10,290 nt of DNA from a virus (taxonomy: Duplodnaviria > Heunggongvirae > Uroviricota > Caudoviricetes). Positions 1 through 10,290 of this stretch are shown piece by piece. The DNA is taken from IMG/VR virus record IMGVR_UViG_2778261009_000001, positions 1-10,290 of that record. The stretch is one strand, 5' to 3'. The notes beneath the pieces were generated by a model. That model did no database searches. It had not been told where the DNA came from and was given only the letters and a program-made list of their open reading frames with translations. Every line of letters begins with the position of its first letter. Within the stretch, counting starts at the first letter, position 1. A program made the translations under genes and the position numbers.

Positions 1-188
1 ATGTTAAATAGCAAGTAGATAAATATACAAGGATGTAAATTTTCACTTTATAAAATATTGCATGTATCTTATTAGTAAATGAAGAACTAAAAAATGGATA
101 TCTATGCGGTTAAAAGGTACTCCTGCAATTTTGAGAATGAAGCGTAGTTTCAGGCACGTTTTCATTCATCTATATGTGAGGGAATTAA

Positions 189-6789
<6,601 letters not shown>

Positions 6790-6790
<1 letters not shown>

Positions 6791-7227
6791 TGCGAACTTC
6801 AGACTACACAATACGGAAATTTTTGATTAATAATCTCAATACTTTGGTAAATCTTCAATATCCATCGAAAGCAACGGTAGACGACAAACCAATGTTATAC
6901 ATCGGTGACAGTACTGTAACACGTTCACGCATTCAAAAAGCAAATACATTAATTAATGGTCAATTAATACCAAGTGAGATTAATTATCTCTGTGAATTTA
7001 GAGTGGACTTTGTAGCAGTAGGTGAAAATTATAAACTTGCATCTGATGAAATTAGTAAAGTACTTGATGCAATCTATGCAAGTGGTTTTATTAATGAATT
7101 GAACAAACTACTTCCAATGGATGTTTTCAATGTTGTTCTGGAAGAGAGCTTAATGACTACCCAGGCCGAAGCAACTAATACGATGTATGTGCATACACAA
7201 ACTATATCTTTTAGCTATGGGGAATAA
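6790..7227 (+). CDS. Tail terminator protein, lambda gpU-like (putative)
   Basis: 145-aa ORF starting in a TAATG stop/start overlap (6788-6792). Size, position just before the tube gene and loose block similarity to lambda gpU (N-terminal helix, CEFRVDFVAVG, C-terminal HTQTISFSYGE vs ADLTYVITYEM). RBS AAGGA at 6779-6783. Confidence 0.45.
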
Positions 7228-7230
7228 TTT

Positions 7231-8913
7231 ATGGCTTTTATTACTAACAACACAAGTGTATGGATTAACACCGACACATTAAACAGTGATCCCAAATCTA
7301 AGGGATTTAAAGAAGTACCAGAATTAAGCGGATTCCCTTCATTCGGTCACAGTACTGAAACCCTTGCCATTGAAACATATGACTCTGAATACATCGAAAA
7401 GGTAGTAGGTAATAGCACCTATGGCGATGTCACTATTACGGTTAACTGGGTTCCATCAAAACATAAGTTTCTCGATGACATCGTAAAAAGTCGCCAATTA
7501 GTACAAATGAAGGTAGAGATCCCCGATGAAGGACAGAATGACCTTACGGTTAACTATGCACTTTATAATGGTTATCTGGCTTCTGTATCTACCAGTGGTG
7601 ATTATGATTCTGTTACTTCCCGTTCCTATGTATTCACCCCAAACGAACAACTTTCTGCGGGTATTCTTGACAGTACGATAGTCCCTCTAAATCGCGGAGA
7701 CTGGGGCGTAGGTGCAAACGGTATTGAGTTTCCAAGTTATCAGGGGCGTGATGGTAACGCTTTTATTAAGATCCCAGGTGCAGGTTCACCAACAGGGACA
7801 GATGTACTTGGTATTAATAACCTTGATTCTAACTTTGGTACACAACTGGTTATCAGTAAGACAGGTACGCCAATAATTAACGTGCGTAACTATGGTGCAT
7901 CTATGGGGGCATGGTACAAGGTCTATACCAGTGCTGATAAACCTACACTGGCAGAACTGGGTGCTGCATCAAGTGCATCTCTTGCAGACTACGTACCGAT
8001 TACCCGTACCATCAATAGCAAACCACTAACTGGTAATATTACACTACTGGCTTCTGATATCGCTGATGTATACAGTAAGACGTATATAGATCAGAACGTA
8101 GTCCCAAAAGTATTCCAGTTAAACGGTCATGCACTATCCGGTACGGCATTAAACTTAGTTGCCGCAGATATTCTTGATGTGTATTCACAGACTCAGGTTG
8201 ATACGTCATTTGTAAAAAAAACAACTACTGTTAACGGTTTAAGCCTTTCCCAGAATATAACACTGACAGCCGCACAACTCCCAGACATGGCGAGTATTGT
8301 TTTTACTAATAACACATATGTACCAAAAACATACTTAATCAACAATAAGCCATTAACAGGAACTAACATTCAATTAGTTGCTGCTGATATTCCTGATGTG
8401 TACTCACGTACTCAGTCAAATGATCTATTTGCACTACGTATCACCACTATTAACGGGTATGCTCTTAACAGCAATATAGTACTGAATTTTGATGATGTAG
8501 GAACATATTCAAAGAAACAGATCGATGACAAAGACAAGGTACTAAAGGAAGAGATTGATACGAAGGTAACAATTGTAGATGATATTCTTAAACTAAATAC
8601 CCTTGTAAATAATTCATTAGAAATAGATTTGAGTGATAGTAAAACTACATTCACAGTGACTCTATCACAACCAACGTCAAACTTCTCTGTACTAAATGCA
8701 AGTGGTAATGACAAAAAGAGTCAAACATTTCAGGTGCTTATTAAACAGGGTACAGGGGCAAATAAAATATCCTGGCCTACAAACATTTTATGGTCTTATG
8801 GGCGTGTTCCAGTATTAACCTTTACAAAAGATTCTACTGATGTATTTCAGTTTGTCACAGTAGACGGGGGTAGTACTTGGTACGGCTCTCTACTAATGGC
8901 AGATATGAAATAA
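7231..8913 (+). CDS. Tail tube protein (lambda gpV-like N-terminal domain) with C-terminal extension carrying phage tail-fibre repeats
   Basis: N-terminal ~150 aa align by eye with lambda gpV ([29 protein letters not shown] vs [46 protein letters not shown] and YNGYLASVS vs YKIRFPNG and FRGWVSSIG). Residues ~257-432 hold five fibre-type repeats, followed by a ~120-aa C-terminal domain. RBS GGGGA at 7218-7222. Confidence 0.6.
   Translation: [560 protein letters not shown]
7999..8526 (+). repeat. Five tandem protein-level phage tail-fibre repeat units (~37 aa each) inside the 7231-8913 CDS
   Basis: Units [66 protein letters not shown] (degenerate), [48 protein letters not shown]. The DNA copies are diverged (GATGTATACAGTAAG, GATGTGTATTCACAG, GATGTGTACTCACGT), so this is ancient repetition, not a recent duplication. 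Confidence 0.65.
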
Positions 8914-10214
8914 TGAAACCACACAATATAGATAATGCATATCAAATGATCGAAGGTCAGTTTAAGTTCTTGGCACGTAATACTGGCCTTACAACAAATA
9001 ATAAGACACAGCACTACGTATTAAACCCGGATAATGTACTTGCAAATAACCGTCACTTTATTGCAGAAACTGGATGGGAAGCACAGCCGGAAGGTGACGC
9101 AACTACAGAAGGTCAAAGCCTCCAGATTCTGGGGGCAATATATGTGTATCAGGCAACTAAAGACCCTTTCTATCTACAGAAGGCAAAAGAGTACTTTAAT
9201 GCATATCACAAGGCGTTCTATCGTGGTGCAGCATTTCCAGATCCACCGAGTTCATCACTACGCTGTAACTGGATTTGTAATGGAAAGGCTCCAGTACTGG
9301 CACACTACCCATTAGATCCCGAATATCCGACGCATGGTGGATTTAAAGGGACACTATTCACATGGGCTAATGGCCTTACAAAGATCCCACATGGTGCTCC
9401 ACACTGGGGTGAATACCTCGATGCAGTATGGTTTGCCTTCCCTAAGCGTGCGGGACTTGGTTGGAATCAGGTTAACGCAACCGCTTATATGTGGCTTACC
9501 AATGAAGACTCAATAGACTGGGACACAAAAGCACCAACCTATGACGTCGAATGGATCATTGATCGTACCGGACGTAAGGTAGACTCAAACGGCACAGTAC
9601 TGCAATCCGGTCTTACAGGTCAGGAAGGTACAGTACAGTTAAAGAATAAAACCATTACTGGTGAATATCGTTTTAACTATGCAACCCGAAACCCTGTAGA
9701 ACATGGCGGGTATATGTTCAAGCGTAATGAACGCTGGCATAACCGACCTGTACACGTACCGATTGATAACTATGGTTCTTTGGACTTCTCTGATAATGCA
9801 TCAGATGCCGAATTATGGTTTTGTCAGGCAGCCAAGTTACTTTGGGATATTACAGGAGAACGCCAGTATTATCTTGCGTGGCAATGTGCACTATTAACCT
9901 GTTATGGTTATTCAGATATTGACAAGTACGATATGTTCTTTCGTAAATCTACTATTGCCGTAACACCTTTTACTGATGGTATTTCATACGACTACTTCTA
10001 CCCAAGTGAGCAAGTAGCATCATATTCCCGTGATGCACAGGGTTATATTGTAATAAATCAAAGTGCATCCGCACAGACGATGTTAGAACAACAATCAATC
10101 TGGTTTAAATTCAATAATAACTCAAAATTTCACATTGAATATGGTGGTGTTGATAATACCAGTACTGAACCGCCCCGGGAATCCTGGAGACTAAACTTCC
10201 TGAGAAAGAGGTAA
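8913..10214 (+). CDS. Hypothetical aromatic-rich protein, possibly tail-associated and carbohydrate-binding; native 3' end removed by IS insertion
   Basis: ORF translationally coupled to the preceding gene through TAATG at 8911-8915 (a TTG at 8877 is an alternative start). Trp/Tyr-rich with helix-pair motifs (ILGAIYVYQATKDPFYLQKAKEYFNAY, WFCQAAKLLWDITGERQYYLAWQ). The last ~16 codons (EPPRESWRLNFLRKR) are read from the IS terminal repeat, so the native C-terminus is missing beyond about 10165. Confidence 0.5.
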   Translation: MKPHNIDNAYQMIEGQFKFLARNTGLTTNNKTQHYVLNPDNVLANNRHFIAETGWEAQPEGDATTEGQSLQILGAIYVYQATKDPFYLQKAKEYFNAYHKAFYRGAAFPDPPSSSLRCNWICNGKAPVLAHYPLDPEYPTHGGFKGTLFTWANGLTKIPHGAPHWGEYLDAVWFAFPKRAGLGWNQVNATAYMWLTNEDSIDWDTKAPTYDVEWIIDRTGRKVDSNGTVLQSGLTGQEGTVQLKNKTITGEYRFNYATRNPVEHGGYMFKRNERWHNRPVHVPIDNYGSLDFSDNASDAELWFCQAAKLLWDITGERQYYLAWQCALLTCYGYSDIDKYDMFFRKSTIAVTPFTDGISYDYFYPSEQVASYSRDAQGYIVINQSASAQTMLEQQSIWFKFNNNSKFHIEYGGVDNTSTEPPRESWRLNFLRKR

Positions 10215-10290
10215 ACAGGATGACTAAAAATACTCGTTTTTCCCCCGAAGTCCGTCAACGGGCAGTCCGTATGGTTCTGGAAAGTCAGGA
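10166..10290 (+). mobile_element. IS3-family insertion sequence, IS629/IS1203-like, left end (partial, continues beyond the window)
   Basis: Terminal sequence TGAACCGCCCCGGGAATCCTGGAGAC starts with the TG typical of IS3-family inverted repeats and is followed by the orfA start. The encoded N-terminus MTKNTRFSPEVRQRAVRMVLESQ matches my recollection of IS629/IS1203 OrfA. Not checked against a database. Confidence 0.8.
10220..10290 (+). CDS. IS3-family transposase OrfA, N-terminal fragment (partial at window end)
   Basis: ATG at 10220 preceded by GAGG at 10208-10211. Translation MTKNTRFSPEVRQRAVRMVLESQ runs to the window edge. Confidence 0.8.
   Translation, partial: MTKNTRFSPEVRQRAVRMVLESQ

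Follow-up and report, generated by a model that had tools for sequence, protein, structure and literature searches.

A tail tube-like domain as the proposed anchor of a two-component lateral fiber in lambda-like enterobacterial prophages

Results

Domain architecture of the 560-aa protein

The sequence analyzed here is a 10,290-nucleotide stretch of a caudoviral genome (IMG/VR record IMGVR_UViG_2778261009_000001, positions 1 to 10,290; hereafter, the window) that carries part of a lambda-like prophage, and this work concerns one gene within it, at positions 7231-8913 of the plus strand, which is also the strand of every other feature of the window described below. The open reading frame (ORF) starts with ATG, has a ribosome-binding site (GGGGA) 8 nt upstream, is supported by homologues, and encodes 560 amino acids (aa). 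The protein is modular, comprising a tail-tube fold of the lambda gpV type (aa 1-150; 7231-7680), a middle domain proposed to be a second, conserved anchor domain (aa 151-256; 7681-7998), five tandem fiber-shaft repeats of 36-37 aa (aa 254-436; 7990-8538), a linker (aa 437-460; 8539-8610), and a C-terminal adaptor-type domain like that of phi92 gp140 (aa 461-560; 8611-8910). We propose that it is the proximal subunit of a lateral tail fiber with a tube-fold anchor. An earlier note, made from the letters of the window, had described the gene as a tube-fiber chimera with no tape measure gene following, and had offered two explanations: a tube protein naturally decorated with fiber-like repeats, or a deletion fusion in a decaying prophage.

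Comparisons of profiles and of a structural model indicate that aa 1-150 is a tube-like fold, as the earlier note had suggested. PHROG 158, annotated as major tail protein, matched aa 3-140 (E 1.2e-19), and a profile of the 560-aa family aligned residues 50-148 of lambda gpV by hhalign (E 2.9e-5, probability 74%); against PDB sequences, the tube-domain profile recovered lambda gpV only at E 0.14-0.16. An AlphaFold2 (AF2) model of aa 1-256 predicted the element order E-E-H-E-E-E for the tube domain, fitting the β-sandwich with one flanking helix that, together with a long β2-β3 loop, typifies tail tubes, at moderate confidence and with the loop region not resolved in the model, the predicted local distance difference test (pLDDT) score reaching 70-85 in the core strands and helix. 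The best PDB matches of this model by Foldseek were the YDC107 tail core and lambda gpV (7t4f, 7t2e, 8k36, 2k4q; E 3e-5 to 1e-3); SaPI1 and Hcp1 were also within the top 10, and the 80alpha tube ranked 11th. The fused tube domain retains, without deletion, the loop aligned to the inter-ring β2-β3 hairpin of tubes. PHROG, hhalign, and Foldseek agreed in these assignments. The PHROG profiles placed the tube, the repeats, and the C-terminus; Pfam, searched segment by segment, returned sub-threshold tube families and nothing else.

The middle domain ends in an 18-residue motif and is conserved in a 698-aa homologue from the phage record DCP80; in the AF2 model, its pLDDT was 28-50. Pfam searches of the four segments at E up to 10 gave no match for the middle domain, the repeats, or the C-terminus. 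Searching NCBIfam with the gene, its neighbors, and distant relatives yielded nothing useful and no middle-domain match, and the label "pyocin knob", which NCBI attaches to one relative, could not be placed on this domain.

The repeats begin near aa 254, 290, 327, 363, and 400, with motifs at aa 261, 297, 334, 370, and 407. Their mean Smith-Waterman score was 56.4, compared with 19.6 ± 1.4 for shuffled sequences. They matched phrog_23008 (E 4e-17, in three stretches) and phrog_17472, and were ~32% identical to annotated tail fibers of large vibriophages (tblastn). The earlier note had counted five side-tail-fiber-type repeats; the number and the fiber character held up, but BLASTP against lambda orf-401 and orf-314 found no similarity of the fiber part to lambda Stf (best E 2.2 and 0.79). 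The linker that follows is charged and heptad-like when read from the sequence and may form a coiled coil. The further C-terminal domain of the earlier note was recovered as ~100 aa matching phrog_9017 (E 3.5e-27) and phrog_7760 (E ~1e-27). All four of these fiber profiles (phrog_23008, 17472, 7760, and 9017) are annotated as tail fiber or tail protein.

Intact relatives and the downstream tail module

The window stops 1.4 kb past the 560-aa gene, inside an insertion sequence (IS), and as far as base 10167, where the IS starts, it is 99.7-99.8% identical to contigs that encode exactly the same protein. This exact protein is listed in 121 contig-collection blocks, and the full downstream tail module was present in all eight of the contexts displayed. 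Among 5,426 complete Escherichia coli genomes, the prophage element was found in only four. FDN-24, N61, and ESBLEC_MG48 share one gene order: the 560-563-aa gene, then one of 940-952 aa (interrupted by an IS in N61), a "phage tail protein" of 157-158 aa, a pair of genes of ~100 aa each, and a tape measure of 753-820 aa that matches phrog_13674 (E 6e-56). Dit-like, hub N-terminal-like, and DUF6950 proteins and a J-type tip protein of ~1,180 aa come next. The order in intact relatives is therefore the 560-aa gene, a 952-aa gene, a plain 158-aa tube gene, a pair of small genes, the tape measure (753 aa), Dit (184 aa), hub, and J, with the tape measure sitting four genes beyond the 560-aa gene. 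In the E. coli of GCA_024675835.1, for example, the large terminase, the 560-aa gene, and a 953-aa gene are all unbroken. Since the window ends in an IS 1.4 kb downstream, the tape measure that the earlier note had missed only seems to be missing, and its absence is an artifact of the window edge and the IS. The two chaperone-sized genes between plain tube and tape measure (FDN-24 27268-27911; 15101-15744 in another copy, L011) gave no family match, and the second is called as 98 or 106 aa depending on the copy.

These observations bear on the deletion explanation, by which a distal side-tail-fiber gene was fused in frame behind the 5′ part of a V gene, with loss of G, T, H, and the tip genes. 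The window does lack a tape measure, and E. coli prophage copies do carry IS insertions. However, the window ends in an IS a mere 1.4 kb past the gene, the identical protein is encoded in prophages with a complete downstream tail module, and the same architecture with a normal tape measure is present in FDN-24, N61, ESBLEC_MG48, and the eight displayed contexts. Homologues of the full-length protein are described here from the best 120 clusters listed. All were full length (560-563 aa, 100% coverage) at 68-99% identity, and came from Enterobacter, Cronobacter, Klebsiella, Pantoea, Raoultella, Duffyella, and E. coli; at 68-75% identity, the architecture was kept across Enterobacter, Cronobacter, Klebsiella, Pantoea, Raoultella, and E. 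coli. This multi-genus spread excludes one clonal defective element as the source of all the contigs, and the anchor recurs in ~100 diverged clusters of fiber proteins, as described below. With intact relatives that carry a normal tape measure, the deletion explanation falls, and we give it next to no credence.

Two tube paralogues

We then compared the 560-aa protein with the plain tube protein encoded downstream of it in relatives. The plain 158-aa protein also matches PHROG 158 (E 9e-17), aligns with aa 3-140 of the 560-aa protein at 28% identity by BLASTP (E 8e-18), and shares its MAF- start. In every relative read, it lies directly upstream of the two ~100-aa genes and the 753-aa tape measure, and so holds the position of the major tail protein, with the 560-aa gene two genes further upstream. 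Every prophage context read encodes a fused and a plain tube together. When the window lineage is compared with that of MG48, identity is 75% for the plain tube and 59% for the fused tube domain.

With aa 1-154 as the query, 130 proteins were recovered from 1.84 billion cluster representatives. Of these, 102 exceed 400 aa, reaching 1,563 aa, and carry the domain at the extreme N-terminus; ~18 are of plain-tube size. The long relatives are named tail fiber proteins in their source records, and seven of nine that were sampled end in a Peptidase_S74 fiber chaperone domain, while T4 gp36 was matched in one. What the representatives share with the 560-aa protein declines along its length, from the tube domain (129/129) through the middle domain, which occupies the same position in 94/129, and the repeats (46/129) to the C-terminal domain (0/129). 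In a neighbor-joining tree, 19 of 23 plain tubes fell into one clade that contains a single fused sequence; the other four, nearly identical to fused proteins, probably represent truncated gene calls. The tree points to a single old tube duplication, followed by exchange of the distal parts.

The same gene slot, followed by a plain tube, chaperone-sized genes, and a tape measure, is occupied by a 1,233-aa protein in E. coli and a 942-aa protein in Edwardsiella, both in prophages without a 952-type gene. Among cultured phages, a tblastn search of 50,697 phage records with aa 1-250 matched only the DCP80 record, whose first 18 kb include the gene for the 698-aa homologue. Next after that gene come a protein resembling T4 gp37 at its N-terminus, a plain tube, and a tape measure. 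That record (PQ671644.1, "Escherichia phage DCP80") carries the classification of a T4-like Gaprivervirus, although the first ~26 kb are a lambda-like siphovirus module akin to the prophage; T4-like genes and two inverted rIIA copies lie beyond ~26 kb, and the record looks like a chimeric assembly.

The existence of two tube paralogues raises the question of which builds the tail. Taken literally, the first explanation in the earlier note would have the 560-aa protein polymerize along the whole tail, giving it a bristled surface, with the 158-aa paralogue as a minor initiator or adaptor ring. Both proteins match the same PHROG, and lambda gpV, T5 pb6, and SPP1 gp17.1* likewise combine a tube fold with a C-terminal extension, which points outward in those proteins. 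The extension of lambda gpV is, however, an Ig/FN3 domain of ~90 aa, whereas here 410 aa of fiber (knob-like domain, repeats, and adaptor) follow the tube fold, and the position of gpV is taken by the separate plain tube, which has also diverged less. Relatives of the fused protein are S74 fibers of 700-1,560 aa, and such proteins, each with a 952-aa partner, would be implausible at ~200 copies per tail. Moreover, the fused and plain domains are separate old clades that are co-encoded in every context read. We consider a decorated major tube very unlikely. As the canonical position is held by the plain tube, the 560-aa protein is more likely a tube-anchored fiber than the major tube, and the idea of a tube decorated with fiber repeats came closer than the deletion but was incomplete.

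The C-terminal domain and its partner gene

The gene that follows (8913-10167) overlaps the stop codon of the 560-aa gene with its start (TAATG). The window holds its first 418 codons before the IS cuts it; in intact relatives, the product is 952 aa and of the phi92 gp141 type. The earlier note had taken this gene to be unrelated and aromatic-rich. It is aromatic-rich (15.3% W+Y+F), but it is a fixed cassette partner of the C-terminal domain. The partner gene matches phrog_2871 (E 1e-182), and the 952-aa protein is 54% identical over its full length to a "tail protein" of phi92-, phAPEC8-, and rV5-like myoviruses. Immediately upstream of the gene for that tail protein, the same phages have a small fiber gene whose product matches the final ~100 aa of the 560-aa protein at 43-50% identity (tblastn). 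An alignment of the C-terminal domain with proteins of phi92 (gp140), Kaonashi, phiEa21-4, and yarpen had 15 invariant columns.

To count the cassette, we used a query joining 120 aa with the C-terminal domain to the opening 300 aa of the partner protein and required at least 80% of it to be covered at one collinear place. The two parts were collinear in 518 of 532 phage records (97%), and the phages bearing them were phi92-like, rV5-like, jumbo, Felix O1-like, Rosemountvirus, and T7-like. Gene order in these counterparts is the same as in the window. Their upstream proteins resemble one another only in the C-terminal domain and differ in length, at 157 aa for phi92 gp140, 269 aa for Kaonashi, 244 aa for phiEa21-4, and 207 aa for yarpen. 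Kaonashi is an autographivirus, and the N-terminus of its upstream protein is, as we judge by eye, presumably of the T7 gp17 type; yarpen is a myovirus (Rosemountvirus) with the adaptor and its 985-aa partner placed between the neck genes and the sheath gene. Upstream proteins of the phi92 type thus carry a short baseplate- or gp17-type N-terminus, whereas in the window the adaptor sits on a tube-anchored shaft with repeats. The simplest reading of these comparisons is that the C-terminal domain serves as an adaptor carrying the large protein.

Alternatively, the C-terminal domain could itself be the receptor-binding tip, with the 952-aa protein a separately attached tail enzyme or an assembly factor. 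The domain does end an annotated tail fiber protein in T7-like phages, and the proposed contact between adaptor and 952-aa protein is drawn from gene linkage. On the other hand, the two genes are adjacent and collinear in 97% of the phage genomes that have either, across myovirus, podovirus, and siphovirus backgrounds and on unrelated anchors. In phi92 and Kaonashi, the upstream protein, within the range of 157-269 aa, is little beyond an anchor and the domain, and start and stop codons overlap in the window. Given these points, we hold a receptor-binding C-terminal domain to be quite unlikely, and prefer the adaptor.

Searches of PDB sequences gave no credible match, whether made with the 560-aa and 952-aa proteins as single sequences or with profiles of the C-terminal domain and the 952-aa family. 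The gp141-type protein (FDN-24 23850-26708; phi92 gp141, yarpen gp64, and Kaonashi gp30) and its adaptor are present in more than 500 sequenced phages of diverse morphotypes. A word-indexed protein search with the N-terminal 418 aa of the gp141-type protein returned 25 mostly fragmentary homologues, which seems too few. We also note that 23 "Campylobacter phage" records of 140-146 kb, together with one "Acinetobacter" and one "Pseudomonas" phage (e.g., MG065689.1, MG065662.1, OP562383.1, and OR584014.1), have cassette identities equal to those of E. coli phi92-, rV5-, and phAPEC8-like phages; their host labels may be wrong.

Head and neck genes of the window

Upstream of the 560-aa gene, an ORF map with family searches showed a lambda-like head and neck module with all long ORFs on the plus strand. 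It consists of a small terminase (228-785), a gpA-type large terminase of 638 aa (700-2616), a head-tail joining protein of 179 aa (2626-3165), a lambda-family portal (3150-4682), a protease-major capsid fusion (4630-6483), a 98-aa gene (6494-6790) weakly assigned to lambda FII-like head-tail joining, or head-closure, proteins (Pfam Phage_attach E 0.003, phrog_82 E 0.002), and a 145-aa gene (6790-7227) in a neck or tail-completion position that is kept in all relatives. In the fusion, an acidic linker with an (EA)6 run lies at aa ~235-255, between the S78 protease and capsid parts. Near-identical copies differ in the length of the fusion (607 to 617 aa), so the repeat probably lengthens and shortens.

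The 145-aa protein was compared with gpU in order to place the fiber in the assembly order. Pfam, PHROG, NCBIfam, and PDB searches found no family, PDB, or gpU match for it, and a gpU-type terminator was rejected (hhalign probability 0.1%, PDB search empty).

The position of the 560-aa gene directly after the head-tail joining genes (98 aa and 145 aa) and before the tube gene suggests another location for a fiber-bearing ring. In such an arrangement, the ring would lie where the tail meets the head, beneath the terminator or connector, and would bear whisker-like fibers, with everything else as in the two-component fiber that we propose. The yarpen cassette is likewise found between neck and sheath genes, and connector and terminator proteins reportedly use tube-like folds, as Cardarelli et al. 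are said to have described in 2010. Gene order is nevertheless weak evidence, known siphovirus side fibers attach at the tube/Dit junction (Ur-lambda and T5), and the anchor domain is a close paralogue of the tube rather than of connector proteins. A neck or collar fiber is possible but, in our estimate, unlikely, and a ring nearer the tail tip remains our preference.

State of the prophage

The window ends in the left end of an IS3-family (IS629-like) element (TGAACCGCCCCGGG...; 10166-10290), identified by megablast matches to IS629/IS3 annotations. Its transposase orfA ATG is at ~10220, and the junction is ambiguous by 2 nt. The partner gene is broken after codon 418, so this prophage copy, with the gene for the distal subunit disrupted, probably cannot make a complete fiber. 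In N61, a separate IS3-family element interrupts the 952-aa gene at codon 787 (24787-26178), its junction showing a 5-bp overlap, and in FDN-24 and FDN-9 it is the 145-aa gene that is interrupted (FDN-24 20391-22164), making three independent IS3-family insertions in this small region in different E. coli prophage copies. The window's IS junction was absent from the 5,426 complete E. coli genomes.

An unbroken large terminase gene (638 aa) is found in the window and in copy L012. FDN-24/FDN-9 and several other copies, at 99.8% identity, have the gene as two ORFs of 93-150 aa and 470-486 aa (L011 3517-5398, L013 2319-4062, L017, and L018), the split arising from a few indels rather than from substitutions. 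Decay of the E. coli copies thus proceeds by insertion and frameshift, not by deletion. The suspicion of decay in the earlier note was partly right, but the mode of decay is that of the IS insertions seen in the window, N61, and FDN-24.

The element as a whole is ~35 kb with ~39% GC (N61 2510-39000; FDN-24 5533-38850). It integrates by a large serine recombinase at differing sites, beside yggS in N61 and inside ybhA in FDN-24. The non-structural region is very small and carries variable cargo, SMODS and SLATT in N61 and an ATP-dependent nuclease in MG48, and nearly all genes of the element are annotated as hypothetical.

Discussion

We propose that this lambda-like siphovirus prophage encodes a lateral fiber of two components, with the 560-aa protein as its virion-proximal subunit, and we assign this reading a probability of roughly 0.65. 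The major tube would be built from the separate 158-aa paralogue. Six copies of aa 1-150, an ancient paralogue of the phage's own tube protein, would form a tube-type ring stacked in the tail, probably adjoining Dit. The six C-terminal arms would leave the ring via the middle domain and trimerize, yielding two fibers per ring, each made of five 36-aa repeats, a short coiled linker, and an adaptor tip of ~100 aa. The adaptor would dock the translationally coupled 952-aa toroid protein as the distal part, which would bind or degrade surface glycans.

The best analogy for the proposed ring is found in T5, where one ring of the tube paralogue p140 lies between tube and Dit, at the site of the fiber collar (PMC10038345). 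T5 likewise encodes this paralogue beside its major tube protein. Its ring (p140), collar (p132), and L-shaped lateral fiber (pb1) are three proteins, whereas here tube fold and fiber are one polypeptide and no collar is evident. Ur-lambda Stf, likewise a lateral fiber on a lambda-like siphovirus, is fixed to the virion by its N-terminus and binds the receptor with its distal part; it anchors at the junction of the last gpV ring and gpM (PMC12617516). The Stf anchor is a 12-mer collar around the tube made from a six-stranded sheet domain, in contrast to the tube fold itself here, and the stf gene lies downstream of J, whereas the 560-aa gene lies upstream of the tube gene and its product has no sequence similarity to Stf. 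For the distal part, the pair of 560-aa and 952-aa proteins may be likened to anchor-branch systems. In those systems (CBA120 and G7C, with T4 gp10-like branching, and the Klebsiella KP32 type), a protein fixed to the virion docks a neighboring enzymatic receptor-binding protein; for the pair described here, docking would follow from gene linkage.

Several points weigh against this proposal. The Pfam tube models PF16460, PF16461, and PF06199 scored 17.5, 15.4, and 14.8 bits against gathering thresholds of 28.4, 23.8, and 26.1; as all are sub-threshold, the domain is better described as a diverged member of the tube fold than as a member of a recognized Pfam family. The AF2 model of aa 1-256 is of only moderate quality (mean pLDDT 54). 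Incorporation of the tube domain into the tail, and its location there, we infer by analogy with the systems above, and gene order would fit a neck or collar location just as well, given that the gene adjoins neck genes and that the Rosemountvirus cassette does so too. That the 952-aa protein docks on the adaptor is suggested by the linkage of their genes, and in some podoviruses the C-terminal domain is the last domain of the fiber gene and could itself be a receptor-binding tip. The 952-aa protein is probably glycan-active, judging by a model of its N-terminal 418 aa as an (alpha/alpha)-toroid resembling those of enzymes that cleave or modify glycans, but that model covers those 418 aa only, at a pLDDT of 64, and Foldseek found nothing significant for it; alpha/alpha toroids are also found in enzymes that do not act on glycans.

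If the proposal holds, it may amount to a so far undescribed mode of attachment, in which a duplicate of the tube gene became the fiber's own anchor, a fiber-bearing ring is built into the tube, and six chains pass into two trimers. We put this at even odds. A literature search found no published description of a tube-fold or tube-like fiber anchor, although coverage of subscription journals was weak and this counts as weak evidence. The components are of known kinds (tube fold, fiber repeats, and adaptor-enzyme cassette); the combination and the attachment mode it implies are new.

Known siphovirus solutions for attaching lateral fibers are collars around the tube, as with lambda Stf and T5 p132, and an anchor that is itself a tube subunit would be structurally different and simpler, with the mismatch between hexameric and trimeric symmetry resolved within one polypeptide. 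It would define a large family of enterobacterial prophage fibers, with ~100 clusters at 50% identity and freely exchanged distal modules, in a lineage with essentially no cultured representative. It would also explain the unannotated N-terminus of ~250 aa on hundreds of enterobacterial proteins named "tail fiber" or "S74 peptidase". The uncharacterized gp140/gp141-type cassette, found in more than 500 sequenced phages including the broad-host-range phi92- and rV5-like phages, appears from sequence comparison to be a portable adaptor-enzyme pair, one that could be plugged onto myovirus baseplates, podovirus gp17 stubs, and a tube anchor alike. As lateral fibers set host range, virion anchors are the parts that must stay when fibers are swapped in engineered phages and tailocins, and for the prophages described here, that part would be the tube-like N-terminus.

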